Shown piece after piece: positions 3,869-62,343 of a stretch of 64,000 bases of DNA; the stretch's first letter is position 1; every line of letters starts with the position of its first letter. The position numbers and the translations under genes were made by a program. This DNA is from a virus, in the IMG/VR virus record IMGVR_UViG_3300045988_174371, positions 64,001-128,000 of that record, one strand, 5' to 3'. Under the pieces are notes generated by a model. The model worked only from the letters and a program-made list of their open reading frames with translations, had not been told where the DNA came from and made no database searches.

Positions 3869-4807
3869 ATGTTCCACTACCTATCACTGCCCGCGTGGGT
3901 ACTGGCAACGCTCTACATCATTATCGTGCTCATTGTGTTGTTTATAGGAGTTGCTACCTTAACGTCCTACTTAATGTTGCGACGGCAAAGGCGGAACTCT
4001 GCTGAGATAATCCCTGGCGGCGGCGAAATACAGGCGGCAGGCTGGCGAAAAGCGGTTGCTAGAGTTACTGACATTGAGGCGGTGGAGGGAGCTGGCATTG
4101 TGGCGCTTCTTACAGTCACCCTTCTTGGTATCGTTACTTGCTCACTACTGCTAATGTCGCCAATACTCATTATGGTTCCTTTGGTTGGCATACTGATGTT
4201 TCTGCCCTTGAAAAGCAAAGAGGGTGGATTGTCAGCTTCCGAAAAGTTTGGTTACTTGTCGATTGTTGCGTTGCTTCTATCTATCGCTGTTCCTGCTGGT
4301 GTAGATGCGTACTTCGTTTACAATTCTCATTCATCTGTGACGTACTATCAGGACGCTTCTGGCGGATACCATGAGTCAGCTCAGCGCAACATTCTTGCCG
4401 GGCGGGTTGTTGAGTCTCGCAAGGCGGACGGTCTGGTTGAGTACCAGTGGGGCGAGATAAGCGCGAGGGACGGCAATGTTATATTGCCGAATACTGGCAA
4501 CAGTAAAGATTCCCAGAAGCGCGTTGAGATTGTAGAAGACCTAGCGCCCGGTGAAGCGCCGTATGTTGTTCGCAGAATCGACGTTGCAAAGCCTGTGGGG
4601 GTGCCTGAAAGCTTGCGGCTTTGCCTTGCTGGTCAGGATGATGTGAAGTCGTCGCCCTGCGCCCCTCATCACGAGAGAGTGGACAAGAGAAACGTCAGTG
4701 TTATTAGCAGTATCCATATTCCTGCTGGTGAGCGAGATAAGTATGTTACCTCATCCTTGGCGGACAGTTCAGTAGCTGGTAAGGAGGAGAACTCTAATGA
4801 TTCCTAA
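3869..4807 (+). CDS. membrane protein, paralog family A (multi-TM N-terminus + conserved C-terminal domain)
   Basis: ATG at 3869 follows AAGAAAGG; TM helices; C-terminal motifs DLAPGEAPYVV and IHIPAGERDKYV shared with 6 other ORFs. Confidence 0.75.
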   Translation: MFHYLSLPAWVLATLYIIIVLIVLFIGVATLTSYLMLRRQRRNSAEIIPGGGEIQAAGWRKAVARVTDIEAVEGAGIVALLTVTLLGIVTCSLLLMSPILIMVPLVGILMFLPLKSKEGGLSASEKFGYLSIVALLLSIAVPAGVDAYFVYNSHSSVTYYQDASGGYHESAQRNILAGRVVESRKADGLVEYQWGEISARDGNVILPNTGNSKDSQKRVEIVEDLAPGEAPYVVRRIDVAKPVGVPESLRLCLAGQDDVKSSPCAPHHERVDKRNVSVISSIHIPAGERDKYVTSSLADSSVAGKEENSNDS

Positions 4808-5714
4808 TTTCGATGCTCTATGGCCCGTTGTTCTGCATCTTGCGGGACTGGCAGTGTACGTTGTTGTTGCTACAGTTCTTTATTTCCGTGTTAGGCGGAT
4901 TGATGATGCTGTGGTGGCGCGCGGTAAAGCTGAAAACATTGAGTACACATTCTGGATTTATGGTCTAGGTGGAGGCTTCCTGTCGCTTGTGGTTTCCAGT
5001 ATCTTGACACAGAGCTTAGTCCTGCCTGTAGTTGCTTTTGTGGCTGGCTTTATTGCACTGGCTGTTACGTGTGCGTATGCCTGTACACAGCCAACAATGA
5101 GCAACGGTTATTCACTTCAGGGGCTTGCCTTGCTTCGCACGTGGGTTGTTTTCACGCTTGTTTACGGGACGCTGTTCGCTGGGGTGCTGAGTATGATTGC
5201 TCCGGCTCTTCCTAAGACTTTCTTCTATAGCGCGGATGGCACTAAGACTGTCACCTTTTATCGTGGCGACGGGTTCACCCCGGTAGAGCGTGAGGTGCGC
5301 AATGAGCTGGTTGGCGTTGTTTCGGTACATACTTCGGGTAGGGACGTGACGGCAGGCGACCCTGTGTATGAGTGGGTTGAGCGAACTGATGGCGGCGAGT
5401 TGCGCCCTATCTACAAGAAGTCTAGCGGCGACCTCGGCGCATATGTCCTTATGATAAGCACTTTAAATGAAACGCCTGCCGACACGTGGGTTAGTAACGT
5501 TGAGGTAGTCAGCGACTTGAAACCTGGCGAAGCTCCGTATGCAGTCCATCAGATTACTTACAAGGTACCCAACTCATATGACGGGAAGAGCCCTCTGTGC
5601 ACTAGGTATCATTCTGCCAGGAGTAAGTGCTCAGTCAATGTTGATAGCATTAAAACGAAGGCTACTATCCACATTCCAGAGGGTTCTTACGACCAGTATG
5701 TGAAGGTTTTCTAG
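4797..5714 (+). CDS. membrane protein, paralog family A
   Basis: AAGGAGGAG RBS; overlaps the previous stop by 11 nt; motifs DLKPGEAPYAV and IHIPEGSYDQYV. Confidence 0.8.
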   Translation: MIPNFDALWPVVLHLAGLAVYVVVATVLYFRVRRIDDAVVARGKAENIEYTFWIYGLGGGFLSLVVSSILTQSLVLPVVAFVAGFIALAVTCAYACTQPTMSNGYSLQGLALLRTWVVFTLVYGTLFAGVLSMIAPALPKTFFYSADGTKTVTFYRGDGFTPVEREVRNELVGVVSVHTSGRDVTAGDPVYEWVERTDGGELRPIYKKSSGDLGAYVLMISTLNETPADTWVSNVEVVSDLKPGEAPYAVHQITYKVPNSYDGKSPLCTRYHSARSKCSVNVDSIKTKATIHIPEGSYDQYVKVF

Positions 5715-5726
5715 GAGGTAAGTAGA

Positions 5727-6791
5727 GTGGTTCTGTTGATGAGTGTTGCTGATGGCGTGTACATGTACCCGCTTATCGGGTTCTTGGGGTTGAGTGCTGT
5801 CGCGTTTGTTGCGTCACTGTTTTCTTGGTGGCGTTATCGTGGAGCGGCTGAGCAGGTGAGTTCCGCTATTAACCGCGTGCAGGCGGCTAGGGAGGATGCT
5901 GAGCGGCTACTAGAAAAGCGCGAACAGGAGCTTCTTGACGAGTATAGCCTCAAGCGCAAAGGCTGGGCAGATAGGGGTGATGCTTACTTTGATGAGATTG
6001 AGCGGATGTGGGCTGATTATCGCAAGAACCCGGCAAAGTATGCAGGCGACAGGCTATCTGGTGAGGAGTCTGGTAACCGCAGTAAGCTTGAGTTCATCTA
6101 CAATTCCTACATGGGCGTTGGGTTGCTACTGGCGGTGCTACTACTACTGACTTTCACCGTTGTAGGATTATGGGGTATGGCGATTCTTGCCGGGGTTCTA
6201 TTCTTCCTATCGGCAGGTTGGGCTGTCCTTGATGACTCTGAGCTGAGGGGGACGAAGCTTTGGGCTATCCCCGCTAGTATTGCCGCAAGCGCGCTTGTGG
6301 CGCTATTGCTAATCCCTGTTTCTGGGATGGCGACGAATAGCAACCCGCCGCCGGGATGGATTGCACACACTCATGAGGTTACGCTTGCTCAGCAGGCGGA
6401 CGGCACATATGGTGTAGGTGAGCCTGCTAGGATGCGTCTAGACGGTACGGTAACTAAGAGTAAAGAGCCTGATGCTGACTACTCCTGGGTTGAGCTGGAC
6501 TCACGTAATGTGAAGCGGTCTTACGACTCGTACTATTACAGGGGTGTTGAGAAGCAGGTTCGTGTTATGGATGACCTTGCGGCAGGCGAAGCTCCATATG
6601 TCGTGCATCACCATGTGTTCAATGTGCTGGATGGGTATGCTGATGGTGAGGTCTGTGCCGCCAGGTTTAGTGCTTCACCTGCCCTAACTACCTCATGCTC
6701 TGACCGTAATGCGTGGAGTAAGCGTGATGATGCTGTTATTCATATCCCTAGGGGTGAGTATGAGCGCTGGGTAGTCGCTAAGCAGAAATGA
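5727..6791 (+). CDS. membrane protein, paralog family A (with extra N-terminal coiled-coil segment)
   Basis: GTG start after AGGAGG; motifs DLAAGEAPYVV and IHIPRGEYERWV. Confidence 0.8.
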   Translation: MVLLMSVADGVYMYPLIGFLGLSAVAFVASLFSWWRYRGAAEQVSSAINRVQAAREDAERLLEKREQELLDEYSLKRKGWADRGDAYFDEIERMWADYRKNPAKYAGDRLSGEESGNRSKLEFIYNSYMGVGLLLAVLLLLTFTVVGLWGMAILAGVLFFLSAGWAVLDDSELRGTKLWAIPASIAASALVALLLIPVSGMATNSNPPPGWIAHTHEVTLAQQADGTYGVGEPARMRLDGTVTKSKEPDADYSWVELDSRNVKRSYDSYYYRGVEKQVRVMDDLAAGEAPYVVHHHVFNVLDGYADGEVCAARFSASPALTTSCSDRNAWSKRDDAVIHIPRGEYERWVVAKQK

Positions 6792-6851
6792 TAGGCGGTT
6801 CCCCATTAGCTGTACTCACTGTTCTTGTGGGGCATTTTGATGGGGCATAAA

Positions 6852-6899
6852 GGATAAGCGGCGGAACTTCATGTTTTCTTGAAGTTCCGCCGCTTATCC
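6852..6899. terminator. bidirectional hairpin terminator between convergent genes
   Basis: GGATAAGCGGCGGAACTTCA / TGAAGTTCCGCCGCTTATCC perfect 20-bp inverted repeat. Confidence 0.75.
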
Positions 6900-6941
6900 T
6901 TAGCATTATGAGGGAATGACCTTCTAGCGTTCCGTCGTTGC

Positions 6942-8354
6942 TCAGTCGGTGAAGGCGGCGCTACCAGCTTCCCAAATGTCGTTAGGTGCCCATTCCTGAA
7001 TGCCCTTTCGGGTCTTCTGGTAGCCCTTCCACAGGGAGCGCCAGGCAGGGAGCCCAGTATTGGCAATCAGGGTGTCTTTGTGTTCCTCAAGTGCCTGTTG
7101 CACGTCTTCATACAGCTCGGGTGTTGCGTTGCTTTGCGTCTGGAGAGCACGCAAATACTTTACAAGTTCAGGGATGTACGGAGCGCCCGTCCGAAGGCGT
7201 CGCTGGACAGTATCGCTAGGAGTTTCCCTAAGCTCGTCCATAACGCTTTCGAAACGGCGTTTCGCCTCAATGTATTGTTGCGCCTCTTCGGAGGTGCTAC
7301 CAGGCATTGAGGCAACAGGGTCAAGGGTCGCGTAGTCAAGCCCTTCATAGGTGATGTTGCCGTGACCGTCAGGGGTAATGCAGAGAGTTGCCGTGTCGCC
7401 GTCAGGGAAAGTGATGACGGCTTCCTGCTTGTCAGCATCAACAGCTGTAAGATGTGCCAGGAGGAAGCTTACCGGCTGGGTGGGGTACATGCCTTCACTG
7501 ATGGGCTTGTATGCGTTGAATCGGGTGAGGATGTGGTCACCTTCGTGGAGAGTGCCGCCGCCGGGGATTGCTAGCCCTCCACTGCGTCCGCTAGGTGCCA
7601 CAGGTGCCTGCTGGAACTTCTCCCATTCGTTGCGTGCGTCAAGATACTGCTTGTACTTGTTGTAGGAGCGGCGAAGCTCTGCGAGCGCCGCTTCATACTC
7701 TTCCTTGATTCGTCCAGTGGTTCTCTTAGTTGCGGTACGCATCTTACGGATGGTGTCCGTGTAGTCGAGAAAGAGGCTGAACGCGGTACCTTCGAAGGCG
7801 TAGCCGTCGTTGATGCCGTCTACTACGGCGGGGAGCTTATGGTTGGCTTCCTGGACTAGGCTCTCCTGTGCTTCCCATGCGAGGATTACCTCGTTGATGA
7901 GGGCTTTCTCTTCTTGGGGGATATGGTAGATGTGGCTACAGTCTGCGCTGTAGCGGTGGACGAGGATGTCTTCATCGTACTCATCTCCTTCTTCTAGGAA
8001 GGATAGCTTGTAGATTGGTTCACCAGCGGAGTAGGTCACATTATGGTAGAACTTGCCGGTGTACTGCTTGCCGGTGGGATGCAGGGCTACGGTGATGTAG
8101 CCCTCTGCGTCGATGGAGATGACTTTGAGGATGCTGTCGGCATTGACGAGAACGGGTCGATGCTTAGCGCTTTCCCATGCTTTCCCGTTAAGGTCGATGT
8201 AGCGGGTGGGGTCGAATAGGTTTGCGGTGACGAGAATATCGCCAGCGGAGACGTTGAGTTCGTTGAGTGTCTTTACGATTCCGCTCGTTGTGTTCCTCCA
8301 CTTACCTGTGCGGTAGCGGTGGGGGTAGACGCGGTTAATCTTCGTGCTGGTCAT
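6942..8354 (-). CDS. hypothetical protein (470 aa), member of the GD-motif modular family
   Basis: long ORF; contains NVSAGDILV module and a later DGDTATLCITPDGHG beta-like module similar to other large ORFs here. Confidence 0.75.
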   Translation of the reverse strand: MTSTKINRVYPHRYRTGKWRNTTSGIVKTLNELNVSAGDILVTANLFDPTRYIDLNGKAWESAKHRPVLVNADSILKVISIDAEGYITVALHPTGKQYTGKFYHNVTYSAGEPIYKLSFLEEGDEYDEDILVHRYSADCSHIYHIPQEEKALINEVILAWEAQESLVQEANHKLPAVVDGINDGYAFEGTAFSLFLDYTDTIRKMRTATKRTTGRIKEEYEAALAELRRSYNKYKQYLDARNEWEKFQQAPVAPSGRSGGLAIPGGGTLHEGDHILTRFNAYKPISEGMYPTQPVSFLLAHLTAVDADKQEAVITFPDGDTATLCITPDGHGNITYEGLDYATLDPVASMPGSTSEEAQQYIEAKRRFESVMDELRETPSDTVQRRLRTGAPYIPELVKYLRALQTQSNATPELYEDVQQALEEHKDTLIANTGLPAWRSLWKGYQKTRKGIQEWAPNDIWEAGSAAFTD

Positions 8355-16073: not shown

Positions 16074-16158
16074 GTGCCTGTGGTGGAATGGTAGACACGC
16101 CAGCTTGAGGGGCTGGTGTCCGACACAGGACGTGCGGGTTCGAATCCCGCCAGGCACA
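16074..16158 (+). tRNA. tRNA-Leu (anticodon GAG)
   Basis: hand-folded cloverleaf: acceptor GTGCCTG/CAGGCAC, D-arm GTG-GAATGGTAGA-CAC, anticodon stem CCAGC/GCTGG with loop TTGAGGG, long variable arm, T-arm GCGGG-TTCGAAT-CCCGC; CCA not encoded. Confidence 0.9.
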
Positions 16159-16289
16159 CTAGTCACCCCCTATATGGGGTGGTGAGAAGCTTCAGGCTAA
16201 TCTTCTGCCCCCTGCATGGCTTCATCTCATGTAAACCTGGTGGTAATCCCATCACTGGAGTTAAAAGACCTAACGAAAGGTATGTCATT

Positions 16290-23820: not shown

Positions 23821-23946
23821 GTGGTCACCGCTGGAGACATGTTCATGCGGGCTATTGCTGAGGCGGAAGCTATTAAGGCAACATGGGAAGAAGCTGGGCT
23901 AACCCCTCAGGAAGCCCTGGAACTTCTACGCCACCTTCAATACTAG
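23821..23946 (+). CDS. small ORF (41 aa, helical, acidic)
   Basis: GTG 5 nt after AAAGGAG; TATAAT at 23786-23791 upstream and terminator 23953-23988 downstream. Confidence 0.4.
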   Translation: MVTAGDMFMRAIAEAEAIKATWEEAGLTPQEALELLRHLQY

Positions 23947-23952
23947 AAACAC

Positions 23953-23988
23953 AGTAAAAGCCCTCACGACTAGGTGAGGGCTTTTACT
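23953..23988. terminator. bidirectional hairpin terminator
   Basis: AGTAAAAGCCCTCAC / GTGAGGGCTTTTACT inverted repeat; related in sequence to the terminator at 10712-10750. Confidence 0.7.
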
Positions 23989-24068
23989 GTACCTACATGG
24001 GTTACAGGAGCCACCTCAAAGCACAGGGGGGGGAGAAGCTTGGATTATAAGCTACTCTTCCCACTGCT

Positions 24069-24191
24069 GGGTGGGTCAGGGATTTTCCCTGGCGGTACCC
24101 CCCCCCGCCAGCCGAAGCCAGCCTTCCTGGTCTTGACGTGTTAGCGTCCGTTTAGTTTACCCACCTCTCCCAGTCTCTCACAGGCGAGGTG
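24069..24191 (-). ncRNA. unclassified structured RNA, copy A
   Basis: no ORF; diverged duplicate of 60449-60579 with conserved blocks and compensatory changes in hairpins. Confidence 0.5.
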
Positions 24192-24200
24192 TATTGGTTG

Positions 24201-24710
24201 CTACTGCTCCAGGTATTCCAGGAGGAAGCGCTTTACGGATGCCGCCGCGTGGTCAGCTTCGGCATTAGTGTTGCGACTGCGGGTTAGGGCGTACAGGTAT
24301 AGGGCGTATCCTTCCGTGAACTCATCTAGCTCACCGGCAGGCTTGCGTCCGTGCTCGTTAGCGAGGTGTCCTACAAGGGCGAGCTGGGCTTCTTGGCGGG
24401 TCATTTCGGCGGGGTGGGTGTCGGGTCGCCCAACTTCAACATACCTGCCCGCCTTGTTGATACTGAAAAGGGATGCTACGGCGACTTCGTGTGCGTCCGC
24501 ATTTGAGCGGTAGGTCATATGCATCTGCGGGATGTACGCCCCCTCATTGATAGCGTAGCCGCCGTCGGGTAGGGGCGCGGTGTGGAAGCGGGTGGGGTTG
24601 GTGTTGTCGCCTGCTGGGTAGTAGATGTATTCCCACCGCCCGGAGGTGCGGTTGAGGGTTGCTTCGATGTGCTTGTCGAGGAAGTTCTGTAGGGTGGTTT
24701 CGGTGGTCAT
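24201..24710 (-). CDS. hypothetical protein (169 aa)
   Basis: ATG at 24710 after AGAAAGAGAAA; the longer ORF-track N-terminus is Pro/Arg-rich and lacks an RBS. Confidence 0.7.
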   Translation of the reverse strand: MTTETTLQNFLDKHIEATLNRTSGRWEYIYYPAGDNTNPTRFHTAPLPDGGYAINEGAYIPQMHMTYRSNADAHEVAVASLFSINKAGRYVEVGRPDTHPAEMTRQEAQLALVGHLANEHGRKPAGELDEFTEGYALYLYALTRSRNTNAEADHAAASVKRFLLEYLEQ

Positions 24711-24862
24711 GGGTGGTGTTTCTCTTTCTGTGGATGCCCTGCGGGGTTGCAGGGGTTTGTAGTTGAGTGTTTGTTGCGCGCCCCACTGCCCGATGATGGG
24801 TGGTGGGGCGCGCCGGTGGGCGGGTATCCTTTGGTGACCTGCGGGATGCCCACCCAAAGCCT

Positions 24863-26067: not shown

Positions 26068-26123
26068 GCGCTACGGCTTTCCTTAGATGCTTAAAACATG
26101 CCCCCAAGGAGGAAATATAGATG

Positions 26124-26196
26124 TACCCCTTGCCGGGTTCGAACCGGCGACTTCTAGATTCGGACTCTAGCGCTCTATCCACTGAGCTAAAGGGGC
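26124..26196 (-). tRNA. tRNA-Arg (anticodon CCG)
   Basis: hand-folded: acceptor GCCCCTT/AAGGGGT (G1-U72 wobble), D-arm GCTC-AGTGGATA-GAGC, anticodon stem CTAGA/TCTAG with loop GTCCGAA, T-arm GCCGG-TTCGAAC-CCGGC; position 32 is an unusual G. Confidence 0.8.
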
Positions 26197-44369: not shown

Positions 44370-44399
44370 AGTCTATCACAGATTTAAAGCCATACGCAA
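44370..44399 (-). promoter_or_regulatory. family promoter (-35 TTGCGT, TGa-TAGACT)
   Basis: upstream of CDS 44011-44301. Confidence 0.6.
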
Positions 44400-51414: not shown

Positions 51415-52671
51415 CTATTCGATGGGGTCGCGCTCTTCCTGCAAGCGTGCTTCGTACTCTCCTAGAATGGCGCTTGCATTAGACAGAACGTCGTACCGCT
51501 TAGCGATGGTTTCGAGTTCACCCTCAAACTCTCGCTGTAGCGCTTTCTTCCCAACTTCACAGAGGGCAGTTACAGTTCGGGGCACACGCCAGGGCTTTTC
51601 CAGCCAGCGATGGATTGCCCATTCTGCGCCGATGTAGAAGTTGAACTTGAACACCTGCTCACCAATAGGGAAGCCTAGGCGGAACGTATTAAACACGGCT
51701 TCCTGCCACTCTACAAGCTTCCCCCATTCCTGAACCTTGTCTACGGCTCCGGCGGGGATGACACTAAACGCTTCTACAGTACTTTCAATGTCTCCGCTAC
51801 TGTTTACGTATTCGATTTCAATTCGTCGGCTAACCCCGTCGCAGTCGTCTGCGTCGTGGAAGTCATTCTCCGGCTCGTATCCTTCACAGATTTCACAGGC
51901 GTACTCGCGAACCACGGCGGTAAAGGTGCCTACCTTGTTGCCGCCCGTGTCCGTGAGGGTGAGGTTGCCGTTTTCTTCGCCGGTGATGATTCCGGCGCGG
52001 CGGGCACCTTTATCGTTGGTGAGTGTGAACTCTACGCCTTCACCGATAAAGAATCCAATGTCGAGCCGGTCGTTTCTCGCCTGGTACTCTGCGGGAGATT
52101 TGAGCATCACGAACTCCCCCAACTTCGTATCACTAGTGAAAGCGGCGAGCTTGGACTGTTCGGCTTGAATGTAGCTATCCGCAATTTCATTGAGGATGCT
52201 GTATTCGCGCTCTAGGGTGCCCTGCTCATCCTGCCGGGAGTCACGTACACCCTTCAAGATGGTGAGACGCTGGGCGCGGGTAAGCTCCTCAGGTGCGATG
52301 AAGAGCTGGGTTTCGCTAAGCTCCTTGAACTGGTTGAGTGCCCAAGTGTGCTGTTTAGCGGCGCGTTCTTCGTCGCCAGGGAAATGTGCTACCACGTTCA
52401 TACGTTCGTTCCATGCGAAGCCTGCGCCGTTGCTACGGGTGTCGCGGGTAGCGGTTTCAACCACAACGTACTCGCCGGTTTCCGTGTCGTTGATGAGTAC
52501 AGCACGGGTGGGGTAGCCGCTCATAGCGGTGTAGTAAATGCGGTCGATTACTACGCTGTTGCCGCCGTGTGCGGCTAGTACGCGAACGGTTTCGTATGAG
52601 CCGCGTTCGCGTGTGGTGTTCATGATGAGATAGTTGCCGGTGGCGATTTTAGAGAAGTCAATGTCAGGCAT
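51415..52671 (-). CDS. hypothetical protein (418 aa), GD-motif modular family
   Basis: ATG at 52671 after AGAAGGAAG; N-terminus IATGNYLIMN. Confidence 0.75.
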   Translation of the reverse strand: MPDIDFSKIATGNYLIMNTTRERGSYETVRVLAAHGGNSVVIDRIYYTAMSGYPTRAVLINDTETGEYVVVETATRDTRSNGAGFAWNERMNVVAHFPGDEERAAKQHTWALNQFKELSETQLFIAPEELTRAQRLTILKGVRDSRQDEQGTLEREYSILNEIADSYIQAEQSKLAAFTSDTKLGEFVMLKSPAEYQARNDRLDIGFFIGEGVEFTLTNDKGARRAGIITGEENGNLTLTDTGGNKVGTFTAVVREYACEICEGYEPENDFHDADDCDGVSRRIEIEYVNSSGDIESTVEAFSVIPAGAVDKVQEWGKLVEWQEAVFNTFRLGFPIGEQVFKFNFYIGAEWAIHRWLEKPWRVPRTVTALCEVGKKALQREFEGELETIAKRYDVLSNASAILGEYEARLQEERDPIE

Positions 52672-53218: not shown

Positions 53219-53279
53219 GTCGCATGTTTGTGGTGTGCATCACCATCTCGGCTCTTGCACACCATCCATGCCGCTCTTT

Positions 53280-53990
53280 CTACCTAGAAAGGAGGGTTAC
53301 CGTAGCGTCGATGGTAAGCTTTCCATCCTCACCAACCCCTACGCGGTCGAACGTATTGCCGTAGGCGTGTTTCTGGTAGAACTTCTTAGAGAAGCGTTCA
53401 CCCACCTTTCGAACAAACTCAGTATCCCCATCCACCTTCGCCACCAGGCACACAGATGCAATAGCGCCATCAAAGTTGATACTGTACTTAATTTCGCCTT
53501 TTTCAGCGTGAATGTCGAAGTAGCCAGAGTAGTAAGAACGCTCCTGCCAGTCTTCAATGCCGCCTTGACGGTGAGTTTCCACGAAGTGAAGGTTTACGGT
53601 TTCCATTTCGTTCGCCCGTTCCACTTCTAGTGGGTTACCCTGTACAAGCTCATTGAACTTAATGACTGCAATGCTGGACACCTCATCTACTTCTACGGTG
53701 TAGTCCTTGACGTAGAGGTCAGCATAAGCGCCGGTAACCAGCAGGTACTTTAGGGCAGTGGTGGTTTCGTGGGCTGTCCTTGTCTTGTAGATAGAGTTAT
53801 CTTCCACATCTACGAACTTGATGTGCGATTTGATGCCTACAGCATCATCACCCTCAGCCCAGGTATCACCTGCAAGCTTGATAGGAAGTTTGCCACTCAG
53901 GATAAGCGCCTTCGCCTCCTCCTTGTCGCCAAGGGAGAAATTGACAGTGAGAGACATTTTATCGGGAAATACTACGAATGGTTTCGCCAT
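53280..53990 (-). CDS. hypothetical protein (236 aa), paralog family F
   Basis: aligns with 60680-61450 and 61609-62343 (Y.KDYT..VD ... F.E...GNPL ... VNLHF). Confidence 0.8.
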   Translation of the reverse strand: MAKPFVVFPDKMSLTVNFSLGDKEEAKALILSGKLPIKLAGDTWAEGDDAVGIKSHIKFVDVEDNSIYKTRTAHETTTALKYLLVTGAYADLYVKDYTVEVDEVSSIAVIKFNELVQGNPLEVERANEMETVNLHFVETHRQGGIEDWQERSYYSGYFDIHAEKGEIKYSINFDGAIASVCLVAKVDGDTEFVRKVGERFSKKFYQKHAYGNTFDRVGVGEDGKLTIDATVTLLSR

Positions 53991-56503: not shown

Positions 56504-56920
56504 CTAGAAGGTGTATGCGCCCGTATCTGCATTAAACTCTACAGCTGTACGGCAATAGCGCGAGCCATCACCCCACAACTCATAACCCTCTTCTTCGGTA
56601 AGGTGGAAGATTGGGCATACAAGATACCTTGCGTCTCGAATACTCATCAGCCAAGGGGCGGAGCTGTATTCAGAGTCAGGCTCAGCGGCAACGAAAAGCT
56701 CACCCACACAGAGAGCAGGTTCTTTCCGGCTCTCCTCCTCAATGTCAATTTCTTTAAGGGTGAGGGTGGCAATTTCCTTCTCGATAAGGACTCGCTCATC
56801 GTCAGTAAAGGTAACCTCGACCTTTGGGGTGAAGTTTTCGTCTACCGCAATATGCCCCGCTTCATCCAAGAGGTATCCCCTATATGAGACGGGTCGGTAT
56901 GTGTGCTTGTTGCGCTTCAT
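56504..56920 (-). CDS. hypothetical protein (138 aa), paralog family I
   Basis: C-terminal part aligns with 46023-46400. Confidence 0.7.
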   Translation of the reverse strand: MKRNKHTYRPVSYRGYLLDEAGHIAVDENFTPKVEVTFTDDERVLIEKEIATLTLKEIDIEEESRKEPALCVGELFVAAEPDSEYSSAPWLMSIRDARYLVCPIFHLTEEEGYELWGDGSRYCRTAVEFNADTGAYTF

Positions 56921-57037: not shown

Positions 57038-57445
57038 CTACTTGCGGCGCTTGGCGTCTCCCGCAACACTGGCAAGGGCATCCGTAAGGCGCTGGTTCAA
57101 GCTCCGGGCATTAGAACGTGCAAGAATAATCTCGAAGCGGTAGTCAGTACCTTCTCCCATGTGTTGAAATTCGGTAAAGTTCGCTAGAGTGCGGATGCGT
57201 GCATCCAGTGCATCAGATGCAATGGCGCGCAAACAGCGGGCAGTGTTTGCCTTGCTTTGCATATCTGCGAACACTGCGGGTGCTACAGATGCATTGGCGC
57301 GAAAGAGTTGCGTCTGTGCATCAAGGTTACATTCCTTCACTAGTGCATCAGCGGCGCTTGAAGCTTTAGCTTCAATGTCAGCCAGGGACTTTAGGGCGTT
57401 GTTGGCACGCTCTGCAACCTTGGCATCAAAGTCGGTGTGGGTCAT
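57038..57445 (-). CDS. helical hypothetical protein (135 aa)
   Basis: ATG at 57445 after AGAAAGCAGGG. Confidence 0.7.
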   Translation of the reverse strand: MTHTDFDAKVAERANNALKSLADIEAKASSAADALVKECNLDAQTQLFRANASVAPAVFADMQSKANTARCLRAIASDALDARIRTLANFTEFQHMGEGTDYRFEIILARSNARSLNQRLTDALASVAGDAKRRK

Positions 57446-57520
57446 TGGGTGCCCTGCTTTCTGTGGGGTTGAATGATTCGGTAGCTTTAGGGGTATCTTT
57501 AACACCCGCTCTATGCTTAT

Positions 57521-57550
57521 ATTGTACCACAGATTTACCGAGCACACATG
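57521..57550 (-). promoter_or_regulatory. family promoter (TGg-TACAAT, weak -35)
   Basis: upstream of CDS 57038-57445. Confidence 0.5.
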
Positions 57551-57583
57551 ATGCGCCGCTTGCCGTACTGTATGTGCGCATAA

Positions 57584-57638
57584 AAATAGTACCAATATGT
57601 GTGAAAACCCTGTGGTGAGGCACATATTGGTACTATTT
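57584..57638. repeat. long perfect palindrome (18-bp arms) after the stop of 57655-58647
   Basis: AAATAGTACCAATATGTG ... CACATATTGGTACTATTT; sequence-related to 51338-51398. Confidence 0.85.
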
Positions 57639-59266: not shown

Positions 59267-60232
59267 TCACTTCACATTATTGGCAAGCTCCTGTGCAACG
59301 TCCTCGCTATACAGCTCAGACTCTCTCAAGCTATGGTGAAGCGCCTCTAGCTGTTCTCGAATGCCCACCAGCTCACTCTCAGCTTCCACTGCCGCCTTGA
59401 GTGTCATCTCCGCGAGTGTCGCCAACGCGGTAACATGTATCTGCTTGGTAGACACATGTGGAAGTTCTGTCTCAAGGATAGTGGTACCGACAAAGCCGCC
59501 GTGACAGATGTCTGAGACATGACTCAGTTCTAGGGCATCTAGTCCATAGTTGAGGGTGCTAATGGGGCGGCTTGGGAGGTTCTTCGCGAATTGGGTAAGC
59601 GCCTCGCCGGTGGTTGCGTCACAGGCGACGGTATCACCCCAGGAGCCAGTATGCCCATACTTCGTCCAGAAGCTACTTTTCACATCGCTAACCGTTTCAA
59701 GGATATTTGCGCTAATACCCCCATCAATAAGCAAGTACGGCTCACTGTTGGTCTGCGTAGCAATAACGCCCGCCTTAAACACGTGGGATGCAGTGAGGGG
59801 GTTCTTACCTCCAGGTGTGAACATAGTGTCGCCGGGTAGAATTTCATGCCATGCAGGGTCAGCATCAGCAAACACCGGGGAGCCAAGGTAGCAGGCGTAT
59901 GCAGGGATTTCAGTTTCGCCGGTAAGCGTATGCGTACCTGACGTGTGGGTTGCGCGGGTGCCCGGCTCCAAAGGTGCCCCTGTAAGGGCTTCTAGGCTAC
60001 CCGTAACGGCAAAAGTGTTACCCTCCTGGTTTCCGGGCACACCGACGGTTAGCATAGCTGTAAAAGCGCCTGTAACCCCGTTGAAGGTTTCAATAGTGCC
60101 CATCGCCAGAGCGTAGTGTCCTTTGCGCCAGTCGGTAAGCGTAGGGGTTCCGCCTACAGTAGCGATATTGCGGTCTTTGAGGAGTAGGGCAATTCCATGC
60201 CCAACTAGCGTTTTAGGTGTTTTGTGCGACAT
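59267..60232 (-). CDS. hypothetical protein (321 aa)
   Basis: GGAGG RBS; Gly/Thr-rich N-terminal half and coiled-coil C-terminus. Confidence 0.75.
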   Translation of the reverse strand: MSHKTPKTLVGHGIALLLKDRNIATVGGTPTLTDWRKGHYALAMGTIETFNGVTGAFTAMLTVGVPGNQEGNTFAVTGSLEALTGAPLEPGTRATHTSGTHTLTGETEIPAYACYLGSPVFADADPAWHEILPGDTMFTPGGKNPLTASHVFKAGVIATQTNSEPYLLIDGGISANILETVSDVKSSFWTKYGHTGSWGDTVACDATTGEALTQFAKNLPSRPISTLNYGLDALELSHVSDICHGGFVGTTILETELPHVSTKQIHVTALATLAEMTLKAAVEAESELVGIREQLEALHHSLRESELYSEDVAQELANNVK

Positions 60233-60303
60233 TACGCCTCCATAAGTGAGAAACTGGCACCAATTGGGCTTGATACCAGTTTATTAGAGCGGCAGGTTAG
60301 CCG

Positions 60304-60395
60304 CTACCTGCCACTAACAGTCACAGGGGTATCTAAGGTAATTTCCCCGTCTACAATGCTTACACACTCAAACTTTCCACCTCTGCTACTAGGTG
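60304..60395 (-). pseudogene. 3'-terminal remnant of a fourth family-F gene
   Basis: nucleotide-level match to the last ~27 codons plus stop of 60680-61450 (translates ...GGKFECVSIVDGEITLDTPVTVSGR*); no start or N-terminal part. Confidence 0.6.
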
Positions 60396-60448
60396 TGTGG
60401 ATGAGCCGCGCACACTGAGAAGGTTCTTACCCATGAGCCACCCATTTA

Positions 60449-60581
60449 GGTGGGTCAAGGATTCTCCCTGACGGTAACCCTCCAGCCAACCCAAGGGTTA
60501 GCCTTCCTGGTCTTGACGCCACCCGAAGGCAATGCCCGTTTAGATTATCCACCTCTCCCAGTCTCTCACAGGCGAGGTGCT
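60449..60581 (-). ncRNA. unclassified structured RNA, copy B
   Basis: no ORF; diverged duplicate of 24069-24191; extended -10 directly upstream on the minus strand. Confidence 0.55.
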
Positions 60582-60585
60582 AGTT

Positions 60586-60596
60586 GGATTATACCA
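60586..60596 (-). promoter_or_regulatory. extended -10 promoter TGGTATAATCC
   Basis: read on the minus strand immediately 5' of RNA copy B; no clear -35. Confidence 0.5.
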
Positions 60597-60597
60597 T

Positions 60598-60648
60598 CTC
60601 AAAAGCTGACGGCGCGCGATTTAAAGCCACACACCGTCAGCTTTTGAG
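60598..60648. terminator. bidirectional hairpin terminator after 60680-61450
   Basis: CTCAAAAGCTGACGG / CCGTCAGCTTTTGAG 15-bp inverted repeat with U-tracts on both strands. Confidence 0.7.
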
Positions 60649-60679: not shown

Positions 60680-61450
60680 CTACCTGTTGCTAACAGTTAC
60701 CTGAACATCTAAGGTAATTTCCCCATCCACAATGCTTACACACTCAAACTTCCCGCCATTTCGGGGTTGGTGGTCGTAACAGAATCCGTCTAGGAAGCTC
60801 TTAAGAACCTTTTCGCCAAACTCTTCGTCGCCCTCAACCTTTGCTAATAGGCGGGCATAGGTGCCATATAGCCCATCATGAGGCTTGCCCAAGTCAATAC
60901 CGTAAACAATGACACCTTTTTCAATGTAGCCTTCGCCATTGGAGTAGAAGGCACCCCTGGAATAGTAAGGGTAGCGCCTCCAGTCTCCCAGGTGATTGAT
61001 TCGGCTAAGCTCTTCGTCTACTACGAAGTGAAGGTTTACGGTGGTCGTATCGCGCTCACTCTCACCCGTGAGCGGGTTACCCTCGACTACCTCTTCAAAC
61101 TCGATGGTGGCAGTATGGGATTCGTAGTCTACAGTAATAGTGTAGTCCTTGATGTAGATGTTGGCGTGTTCTCCTAGCGCGAGAATGTGCTTCATTTCTT
61201 CGGTTGTTTCAGGTACGCCCGTGGTGGGGTAGGCAACCCTATCGCGGGCATCTTCTACGAACTCAATGTTTGGTTCGATAACGACGTAAGGGAGGTAGTA
61301 GTGCCCATCCCATTTCTCGTCCACATAGGTTTCGCCGTTGAGCTTGATAGGTAGGTGCTTGGTTAGGATTTCTTGCTCCGTGTAGGAGCCGGGGTCGAAG
61401 TGGACGGTTAGGGTCTTCTTCTTAGGGAAAATGATGTATGGGTGAGTCAT
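60680..61450 (-). CDS. hypothetical protein (256 aa), paralog family F
   Basis: aligns with 53280-53990 and 61609-62343. Confidence 0.8.
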   Translation of the reverse strand: MTHPYIIFPKKKTLTVHFDPGSYTEQEILTKHLPIKLNGETYVDEKWDGHYYLPYVVIEPNIEFVEDARDRVAYPTTGVPETTEEMKHILALGEHANIYIKDYTITVDYESHTATIEFEEVVEGNPLTGESERDTTTVNLHFVVDEELSRINHLGDWRRYPYYSRGAFYSNGEGYIEKGVIVYGIDLGKPHDGLYGTYARLLAKVEGDEEFGEKVLKSFLDGFCYDHQPRNGGKFECVSIVDGEITLDVQVTVSNR

Positions 61451-61608: not shown

Positions 61609-62343
61609 TTATGCCTTCGGGACAGTAAGAGAAACGTCAATGGTGATGGTGTCACCCTCAACGTTCACGTATTGTGCGCTTTCGCGTGCCTTTGCGTAGA
61701 AGTCTCGCTCGAAGCGGCGGGCTACTCGCTTGACTCGTTCCGGGTCGCCGTCTACCTTTGCTACCATGCGTGCTCCCTTGCCGTAGGTTTCATGTCCACC
61801 GTCGAGGCTGATAATGTACACGATTTCGCCTTCTTCGGCGTAGCTGGCGAGGCTTGCGGAGCTGTAGGGGTACTTCTTCCACAGTTCCATGTCGCCCAGT
61901 GAGCTGTAGTGCGTATTGGGGGTGAAGTGGAGGTTTACTTCCTCTACGTCGTTCGGGTCGATTTCGAGGGGGTTACCCTGGTAGAGTTCGTGGAACTTTA
62001 GGGTGCCAGTCTTTGCTTCTTCGTCTACATCCAGGGTGTAGTCCTTGATGTGGAGGTTTCCCTTGGTGCCTGCAATAATGAAGTACTGCAAGGCTTCGGG
62101 GGTGTTGTCGTCTACATAGAACTGCGCGAGCGTGTTATCAAAAGCGTCTACGAGGGTAAGTTCAGGGTATGCTACCGCTTCATATGAGTCGTAGTAGCTG
62201 TCGTAGTCCTTTTCAGCACTGACGTACCCGTCCAGCTTAATGGCAACCTTGTCGCTGTTGAGGTCTACATTATTCTCGTCTATGCGATAGTTGGAGAGGT
62301 TGAGGGTGACTCCCTGCGGGAAAATACAAATGGGCTGAGACAT
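61609..62343 (-). CDS. hypothetical protein (244 aa), paralog family F
   Basis: aligns with 53280-53990 and 60680-61450; TCGAAAGGCAC leader. Confidence 0.8.
   Translation of the reverse strand: MSQPICIFPQGVTLNLSNYRIDENNVDLNSDKVAIKLDGYVSAEKDYDSYYDSYEAVAYPELTLVDAFDNTLAQFYVDDNTPEALQYFIIAGTKGNLHIKDYTLDVDEEAKTGTLKFHELYQGNPLEIDPNDVEEVNLHFTPNTHYSSLGDMELWKKYPYSSASLASYAEEGEIVYIISLDGGHETYGKGARMVAKVDGDPERVKRVARRFERDFYAKARESAQYVNVEGDTITIDVSLTVPKA

Follow-up and report, generated by a model that had tools for sequence, protein, structure and literature searches.

A truncated gene copy lies at the guide position of a probable Cas12n single-guide RNA gene from a jumbo-phage clade

Why should a structured RNA gene in a phage genome be followed by the headless 3′ end of the very gene that precedes it? 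We analysed this arrangement in a 64,000-nt stretch of viral DNA (the window; positions 64,001 to 128,000 of IMG/VR record IMGVR_UViG_3300045988_174371). On the minus strand, gene F (61450–60680) is followed by a 31-nt spacer, a hairpin (60648–60598), the element TGGTATAAT, an RNA that starts at 60579 (copy B), a remnant of F, a spacer and a 321-aa gene. F′ denotes the whole truncated copy of F (60433–60304), L-numbers denote loci of related metagenomic contigs, and L245–L247 are chromosomal loci of Rothia dentocariosa. A first-pass annotation had read the locus as a scar. We consider it probable, though well short of certain, that copy B is a stand-alone natural single-guide RNA (sgRNA) gene of a type V-N (Cas12n) CRISPR system, which takes its guide from F′ and is aimed at the F genes of rival phages. 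Its apparent carriers form a clade of jumbo phages with sizes of about 215–380 kb.

The window contains two copies of the RNA, copy B at 60579–60434 (nhmmer E = 5e-42) and copy A at 24191–24007 (E = 2e-35). Rfam, searched at gathering and E-value thresholds, holds no RNA family for the element and returned only two tRNAs and hairpin noise. A search with a 19-mer from the invariant loop found 2 further stretches in one IMG/VR contig and 46 in metagenome contigs, with several matches per large contig; eight of the 46 are chance matches outside the RNA family. The exact 19-mer CGTCAAGACCAGGAAGGCT was not found in IMG/VR, nor the scaffold core in GTDB genomes, and a relaxed pattern recovered at least 57 distinct RNA copies in related contigs. 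The RNAalifold consensus of 17 diverse copies has 32 pairs, 17 of them with compensatory changes. Stem 1 (CACCUC...GAGGUG) bears an invariant loop, GCCUGUGAGAGACUGGGA, and is followed by a variable stem 2, by stems 3 and 4, and by stem 5, CC(R)(Y)C...G(R)(Y)GG, which closes around an insert of high variability; CUC and one further base make up the 3′ end. In copy B the scaffold of ~146 nt has five stems, a CUC/GAG pseudoknot and its own extended −10 promoter.

Several features identify the RNA as a guide scaffold of Cas12n. Relatives L029, L011 and L045 each have a gene whose stop codon is immediately followed by a copy and whose 521-aa product carries the TnpB/Cas12 domains PF07282, PF01385 and PF12323. 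This protein matches R. dentocariosa Cas12n (RdCas12n; PDB 9J09/9UDI) at E = 3e-177, with ~58% identity over 506 residues, and ISDra2 TnpB at 1e-35 only. In addition, many copies are followed by 28-nt repeats equal to the scaffold 3′ end (..UUCCCCGUACAYGCGGGGAUGGCUC), with spacers of 20–33 nt; scaffold, repeats (..CCCCGUACAYGCGGGGAUGGCUC) and spacers follow one another in L029, L047, L020, L031, L052 and L011, and L029 has a truncated copy plus three such repeats with 33-nt spacers 5′ of the 521-aa gene. A hidden Markov model (HMM) of the phage scaffold matches the trans-activating CRISPR RNA (tracrRNA) region that overlaps the 3′ end of cas12n on the R. dentocariosa chromosome (E = 2e-5), through the common blocks CTCGCC..GGGGAGAG, TCTAAACGGAC, GTCAAGACCA, GAGGGTCACCGT, CCCATCTA and CCTAGTCAGCAAGC, and the host region continues into an array of 15–19 repeats (GTCTGCCCCGCGTGTGCATGGATGGTTCC). 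The published RdCas12n sgRNA has five stems and a 3-bp pseudoknot of positions −4 to −2 with the stem-1 loop (PMC12216341), and handle and loop covary accordingly, UUC with GAA in the host and CUC with GAG in the phages. From the cas12n linkage in relatives, the repeats, the homology to the host tracrRNA and the compensatory handle change, we therefore assign the element as a type V-N Cas12n guide scaffold, homologous to the RdCas12n tracrRNA/repeat region. Its tracr-like part and repeat seem to form one covalent RNA, a natural single guide: copies A and B each consist of one covalent unit, in which stem 5 is closed and no second repeat occurs, rather than of separate tracrRNA and CRISPR RNA (crRNA). 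The minimal stem 5 of copy B is compatible with activity, because RdCas12n sgRNAs with a truncated stem 5 remain active (PMC12216341). The Cas12 ‘hacker’ family, which uses a GTN motif, was considered and is a different family.

The remnant downstream of copy B is related to F. Positions 60304–60380 match the 3′ end of F over 78 nt at 83% identity (self-BLAST E = 4e-18; tblastn E = 8e-9), so the significance of the match, on which the first-pass annotation had staked its reading, is secure. That annotation had placed the last ~27 codons plus stop of F at 60304–60395; the match proper covers the last 25 codons plus stop, with the same peptide (GGKFECVSIVDGEITLDTPVTVSGR and stop), and, as had been stated, neither a start codon nor a ribosome-binding site is present. 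The copy extends further than had been thought, however, reaching 60433. Positions 60433–60381 are also F-derived, in sense orientation, with 85–87% nucleotide identity to eleven alleles of other phages and 54% to the F of the window itself; they were overlooked because they resemble other phages’ alleles and not the resident one. Exact runs reach 16/16 nt with L057–59 and 13/13 with L056, and L005–7 match at 22/23. In the frame of F this part reads GKNLLSVRGSSTHLVAEVE, where other alleles have GKNLLTVRGSSAHLVAEVEG. It is joined out of frame to the second part through an internal deletion of ~80 nt at a GGNGGAA microhomology. F′ originally kept ~27% of the gene, roughly the last 70 codons, and the loss of about 90% proposed earlier is accordingly too large.

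By sequence, F′ is best described as a 5′-truncated pseudogene copy of F. The arrangement is not an assembly artefact, because three independent assemblies (L014, L021 and L033) share it. Three other descriptions of this segment were rejected. A simple insertion of ~375 nt flanked by an 80-nt direct repeat was dropped, since F sequence in the tail extends as far as the scaffold. The 13-mer GAGAAGGTTCTTA lies antisense to the EKVL codons of F and was considered as an inverted fragment or antisense guide; it turned out to be sense F sequence of another allele. A second GGCTCA (60406–60401), considered as a degenerate CRISPR repeat, corresponds to the RGSS codons of F in all alleles.

The position at which F′ begins links it to the RNA. 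Its first base is the base directly after the 3′ handle of the scaffold, GGCUC-A (60439–60434), and the first ~20 nt of F′ therefore lie in the guide position. We compared the sequences 3′ of a scaffold handle or array repeat with their uninterrupted counterparts in other genomes in 14 independent cases. The counterpart is preceded by AA in 12 of the 14 (P = 1.4e-13, given an AA dinucleotide frequency of 0.059 in the window) and by AAC in nine, examples being TGAA-C, CGAA-C, ACAA-C, GCAA-C and TCAA-C. RdCas12n prefers a 5′-AAC protospacer-adjacent motif (PAM) and tolerates AAH (PMC12216341), and the junction motif of the 14 sites is this published PAM. The base aligned with the end of the PAM is often not the same in the RNA gene as in the naive site, while the bases beyond agree, which identifies it as handle position −1 in the RNA gene and as PAM in the target. 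The rule holds both for array spacers, two of which in L047 match genes of L020, and for flank guides, in which a long, colinear gene segment lies 3′ of the scaffold. Sequence aligned with the copy B guide follows ATCGAAC in L056, L003, L061, L050 and L033, and ATCGAGC in L001, L060, L005 and L057. The closest allele is that of L056 (ATCGAAC followed by TGGGTAAGAACCT), which matches the guide without interruption over the 13 nt next to the PAM and at 17/20 positions in all. The remnant is thus more than the mere scar it had been taken for, since it starts exactly at a Cas12n-type guide position and corresponds, in alleles without interruption, to a site 3′ of an AAC PAM.

The intact F of the window differs from other alleles precisely where the guide would bind. 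A divergent block (F nt ~440–650) has 33–57% nucleotide identity to all other alleles, compared with ~96% upstream and 77–90% downstream, and encodes FYSNGEGYIEKGVIVYGIDLGKPHDGLYGTYARLLAKVEG where other alleles have YYEPPKKKGEKGRIHYGIELGKNLLTVRGSSAHLVAEVEG. Because this block covers the site, the window’s own F has no counterpart of the guide. The block is common to the F of L002 at 97%; intact F is thus of an unusual type in the window and L002, whereas F′ is of the ordinary allele type. In L002, which has the same F allele and a homologous hairpin, promoter and scaffold, F′ is joined at a different place, CTGAAT followed by CAGTGGAGG (F nt 473), and L002’s own F has lost the PAM and part of the match at that site. 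The window and L002 therefore have their junctions at two different PAM-adjacent sites of a single gene. L033 has a cassette and F′ of the window type together with an ordinary F allele, in which 7/20 positions differ from the guide; it appears to be a recombinant that is still not self-targeted.

The relatives of the window are metagenomic contigs of 215–380 kb; megablast, blastn and tblastn against GenBank phages gave no match, and a Pfam search with the F protein found none. Their F loci occur in four states: (a) F, an 85-nt spacer and the 321-aa gene (L001, L060); (b) F, a promoter cassette, a 139/143-aa gene and a downstream gene (L005–7, L057–59, L061), the last being the 321-aa gene in L006, L007 and L057 and another gene model in L005 and L061; (c) F, RNA cassette, F′, a 139-aa gene and a 322-aa gene (L002); and (d) F, RNA cassette, F′ and the 321-aa gene (window, L014, L021, L033). 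The spacer 3′ of F′ in the window is that found 3′ of the single F in state (a), while in L002 F′ and the sequence beyond are of the state (b) type. The F′ of L002 shares 99% identity with F of L056 and 67% with L002’s own F. True paralogs of F in the window (61609–62343 and 53280–53990) reach a protein identity to F of 32–39%; together with the ordinary-allele character of F′, this identifies F′ as a copy of F itself.

These data bear on the first-pass reading, according to which F, a cassette promoter and a fourth F-family gene once stood in tandem and the RNA cassette removed the promoter core and most of that last gene. In its passive form, this reading would leave a scar without function, whose adjacency to the RNA is meaningless. 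An intact paralog at this position, the evidence the annotation had asked for, is found in none of the RNA-less relatives examined (L001, L060, L005–7, L057–59, L061); all have a single F, and F′ is allele-like (85–99% identity to orthologs), not paralog-like. Nor would the end of a random deletion be expected at PAM+1 in 12 of 14 independent cases, or at two different PAM-adjacent sites of the same gene in the window and L002. A passive scar would agree with the frameshifting deletion in the F′ pseudogene, with the finding of no perfect guide target among the sampled F alleles, with the half of a promoter cassette in the hairpin and with the replacement of promoter and 5′ gene part by cassettes in relatives. 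On balance we regard it as unlikely. One element of it may survive, in that F′ may have arisen by a recent tandem duplication of F with later decapitation of the second copy; alternatively, a unit consisting of a recoded F 3′ segment and the cassette may have been inserted at a cut site.

The same footprint recurs at other genes. In L022, the cassette replaces window positions 53270–52567, comprising a promoter, a 121-aa open reading frame (ORF) and the first ~230 nt of a 459-aa gene. In L050, L017 and L044, ~57654–57180 is replaced, which removes a promoter and the 5′ two-thirds of gene 57038–57625 and fuses the scaffold to ..TEFRHMGEGTDYRFEI, and in L043 the scaffold is fused inside the gene next to 57038–57625. 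The relatives’ copies thus replace 0.5–0.9 kb of window-type sequence, comprising a promoter and a gene’s 5′ part, and retain the remainder of that gene, 3′ of a PAM; left junctions vary between RNA copies. The usual footprint of this family is therefore the loss of a promoter core together with the larger part of a gene, as the first-pass annotation had supposed for copy B, although loss of a fourth paralog at F is not supported. Its suggestion of a mobile or recombinogenic RNA cassette is supported by L022 and L050. Conversely, the window carries uninterrupted, AAC-flanked matches to the L017/L044/L050 guide at 57179(−) and to the L022 guide at 52558(−); a match to the L043 guide at 56860(−) has AAG as its flank, which the AAH range reported for RdCas12n does not include. 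Judged from these matches, the window phage may in turn be targeted in this conflict.

As in TnpB omega-RNAs, the guide is right-flank DNA in the window, L002, L050, L022 and L043, a fixed motif precedes the site in empty alleles, and the nuclease is of the TnpB/Cas12 lineage. Hence the cassette could instead be a non-autonomous IS200/IS605-type element (an omega-RNA-only PATE), moved by TnpA and inserting 3′ of AAC, with the guide-like flank a by-product and the F end duplicated later. Such an element would be expected to leave a clean insertion, whereas filled and empty sites differ by a 0.5–0.9 kb replacement: the left flank is never kept up to the motif, the upstream sequence is deleted or replaced, left ends differ, and no conserved left-end hairpin was seen across copies. 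Copies also head true repeat-spacer arrays, and no tnpA was noticed in the loci read, in which no systematic tnpA search was made. We therefore consider this origin very improbable.

We return to copy B as an sgRNA gene with a guide from F′. A guide RNA beside a truncated copy of its target suggests an RNA-guided weapon or gene drive against the same gene in rival phages. Upon co-infection, copy B would be expressed and processed, and a nuclease loaded with its RNA would cut uninterrupted F alleles of rival genomes, while the carrier’s own F would escape through the divergent block at the target site. Cleavage would either exclude the rival or trigger repair from the carrier, with intact F upstream and F′ plus spacer downstream serving as homology arms, so that the cassette and the resistant F block would be copied in together; F′ would otherwise be a decaying pseudogene. 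This model, a marker exclusion or homing guided by RNA, agrees with the mosaic alleles found in the window, L002 and L033 and with the presence of the cassette in two distinct downstream contexts. The junction of the window could, speculatively, derive from an L002-type ancestor by a deletion that moved the handle to another PAM-adjacent site, a cheap form of guide renewal. More tentatively, and with the balance of our judgement against it, jumbo phages of Rothia-type hosts may run an RNA-guided gene drive in general, with dispersed Cas12n sgRNA genes beside decapitated targets and a recoded, resistant allele, all copied into the genomes of rivals once these have been cleaved. New guides would then arise without Cas1-Cas2, when recombination or deletion places a scaffold end beside a PAM-adjacent site.

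Several observations weigh against copy B being an active weapon of this kind. None of the sampled F alleles matches the 20-nt guide perfectly, the best reaching 17/20, and several have AGC for AAC or a mismatch at guide position 2 or 5. The base at handle position −1 is A in copy B and usually C elsewhere. The internal frameshifting deletion indicates that F′ is decaying, and the guide might therefore be obsolete. No cas12n gene lies within the 64-kb window. Furthermore, L052 (5317–6285) lacks cas12n and the adjacent scaffold start at the place where L011 (reverse complement of 4435–7381) has both, which shows that the nuclease is variably present in the clade. L052 retains the surrounding mini-arrays and tRNA genes, and its contig is 95% identical to the window in another region.

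The enzyme of the window phage may be encoded elsewhere in its genome, come from a co-infecting phage or be the host’s own Cas12n. Rothia chromosomes encode Cas12n homologs 54–60% identical to the phage enzyme, and, from this nuclease homology and that of the RNA, the hosts are probably Rothia or other Actinomycetota. Array spacers of R. dentocariosa match neither the window nor the relatives’ loci. No cas1 or cas2 was called within the 3-kb flank on either side of the R. dentocariosa cas12n loci (L245–L247), and the arrays there (4700–5900) differ by strain, with 2, 15 and 19 repeats. A host enzyme also raises the possibility that the scaffolds are RNA decoys or hijackers, which load host Cas12n and either blunt immunity, as an RNA anti-CRISPR, or redirect the enzyme at rival phages. 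The chromosomal homologs and their homologous tracr region speak for this, as does L052, which keeps at least six scaffold copies within 10 kb despite having no cas12n at the syntenic locus. A decoy, in contrast, needs no guides with PAM-adjacent matches to rival phage genes, and, although there is no nuclease gene in the window, the guide-position sequences match PAM-adjacent sites of such genes. Many relatives have their own cas12n beside scaffolds, the phage handle and pseudoknot differ from those of the host, and, as the genomes are seen in part, cas12n may sit elsewhere in them. We regard this explanation as improbable.

The hairpin between F and copy B probably serves as the terminator of F and marks the cassette’s left end. 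The first-pass annotation had noted in its loop a 12-nt piece of the standard promoter cassette. This 12-mer, GATTTAAAGCCA, is indeed present at 60618–60629, with an exact second occurrence only at 44381 (three sites with one mismatch allowed, against 0.38 expected), but the fold has a 22-bp stem and a 7-nt loop, CUUUAAA, so most of the 12-mer lies in the stem. The sequence TTTAAATC is the conserved spacer of 14 promoter cassettes, and the left arm of the hairpin matches the cassette at 44380 in register, 11/11 plus a CTCAAA block; the hairpin thus plausibly holds half of a standard cassette. In L002 (~4805–4850) the apex is inverted relative to the RNA, compared with 60598–60648 of the window, and the stem is compensated, which by alignment appears to be a flip of the palindrome apex. 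Such inversion is easy for a long palindrome and argues against a present promoter function of this piece. As had been reported, the hairpin is followed by the RNA’s own TGGTATAAT (60596–60588), and other RNA copies have GGTAYAMT-type elements at a similar, slightly variable distance from stem 1. A scan for consensus promoters and terminators found no −35/−10 pair at the locus and nothing else. The 14 regular cassettes (3673–63036) all lie on the minus strand, 5′ of genes, and read ..CTCAC..aaaTT.aaCTTGCaTAc.gYTTTAAATC-TGTGATAGACTATAG.

Homing driven by TnpB was reportedly described by Meers et al. in 2023. Like Cas12n systems and TnpB flank-derived guides, it is already known. Compared with RdCas12n (PMC12216341), the phage systems have a nuclease ~58% identical, common scaffold/tracr blocks, the same AAC/AAH PAM, five stems, a 3-bp pseudoknot between 3′ handle and stem-1 loop and a repeat 3′ end of the GGYUCC type. 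They are unlike it in that tracr-like part and repeat form one covalent RNA, in that the RNA genes are dispersed, have their own promoters and usually lack an array, in that the guide is the start of a truncated target copy and not a 30-nt spacer between repeats, and in that jumbo phages carry them, with no nuclease gene in the window. IS200/IS605 TnpB omega-RNAs (reRNA) and TnpB homing (reviewed in PMC13565253) likewise have a long scaffold with a 3′ guide from flanking DNA and an uninterrupted allele with motif and guide match, a logic which predicts that the empty allele is cut and the element copied by repair. Here, no transposase was noticed in the loci read (again without a systematic tnpA search), no left flank is kept, the change is a replacement and not a clean insertion, the target is in the homologous gene of a rival phage and not in a sister chromosome, and repeat-spacer arrays coexist.

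Viral mini-arrays aimed at related viruses, and CRISPR systems of huge phages, are already known (reviewed in PMC11656645). They share with the present loci short, cas-less viral guide loci matching close relatives, as do the L047 array spacers that match L020 genes with the same PAM, but the guide here is part of a long colinear gene remnant and not an acquired spacer, and it follows a tracr-like structured RNA of about 150 nt and not a leader. The intronless homing of T-even phages, by free-standing Seg and Mob, is similar in that the donor phage cleaves a conserved gene in a co-infecting relative, sequence differences protect the donor’s own allele and flanking markers are co-converted into mosaic alleles, comparable to F of the window, L002 and L033. 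By contrast, RNA would mediate recognition here, the guide rather than the nuclease is encoded in the mobile unit, and a truncated duplicate of the target is left. The searched literature contains no description of dispersed natural single-guide Cas12n RNA genes in jumbo phages, of guides from a truncated copy of the target gene or of an accompanying resistant allele.

If our reading is correct, a Cas12-family system works with naturally fused sgRNAs scattered over a viral genome, drawing its guide from an adjacent truncated target, as TnpB omega-RNAs do, while repeat-spacer arrays share the same genomes. It would bear on the evolution of type V CRISPR from transposon nucleases and on guide acquisition without Cas1-Cas2, and the more tentative general drive, with its mode of guide origin, would represent a living intermediate between TnpB flank-derived guides and CRISPR spacer arrays. 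It would also provide an RNA-guided counterpart of homing-endonuclease marker exclusion, helping to explain mosaic genes and variable regions of jumbo phages, and compact natural sgRNA designs (~146 nt, minimal stem 5) for an editor with an A-rich PAM.

Table 1. Features of the F locus and of RNA copy A (window coordinates)
Feature	Position	Strand	Description	Evidence
F	60680..61450	−	256 aa; mosaic allele, functional	ORF; 16 homologs at 57–91% identity
Divergent block inside F	60801..61011	−	F nt ~440–650; spans sites corresponding to window and L002 guides	
Hairpin after F stop	60598..60648	−	22 bp; apex and left arm resemble upstream half of promoter cassette	−36.6 kcal/mol, z −9.5
Extended −10 element of RNA gene	60588..60596	−	TGGTATAAT	read from sequence
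RNA copy B scaffold	60434..60579	−	stems 1–5, minimal stem 5 CCACC-UAAAUG-GGUGG, 3′ handle GGCUC-A	nhmmer E = 5e-42
Guide position	60414..60433	−	UGGGUAAGAACCUUCUCAGU; first 20 nt of F′	aligns with F nt ~565–584 of uninterrupted alleles
F′ part 1	60381..60433	−	F nt ~560–611; reading frame of F kept, GKNLLSVRGSSTHLVAEVE	
F′ part 2 (remnant as first annotated)	60304..60380	−	last 25 codons plus stop TAG (60306–60304); frame differs from part 1	
Resident spacer	60233..60303	−	two hairpins; directly 3′ of single F in L001, L060	alignment, fold
321-aa gene	59267..60232	−	conserved neighbour of F in relatives	ORF
RNA copy A	23946..24191	−	scaffold and handle 24191–24007, guide position 24006–23987 (UGUAACCCAUGUAGGUACAG), terminator hairpin 23986–23946	nhmmer, fold

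The second RNA gene of the window, copy A, starts 9 nt past the stop of a 218-aa gene (24201–24857), and the terminator behind its 20-nt guide-position sequence is strong. It deviates from the near-invariant GAGGGUYACCG motif by a G9 run and has a short stem 2, and may therefore be impaired. A search of IMG/VR for a target of its guide returned only chance 16-mers. Relatives L015/24/25 and L041 have a scaffold at the same locus with quite different guides.

Among the RNA-less relatives, L061 carries a different TnpB-like gene (5065–5771(−); 534 aa, PF07282; motifs AVEDLS, CHVC..CPKHG and DRDVNAAANI) ~1.8 kb downstream of F, with 140-aa and 234-aa genes between them; tblastn detected no similarity between its product and the Cas12n-like protein. 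Many scaffold copies also occur within tRNA gene arrays (L027, L032, L035, L042, L045, L046 and L051), and some of these are followed by tRNA 3′-end fragments, for example ATCCCGTTGGGAGTA after the handle, which suggests that tRNA genes, too, may be junction partners or targets. The window itself has tRNA genes for Leu-GAG (16074–16159(+)) and Arg-CCG (26123–26196(−)).

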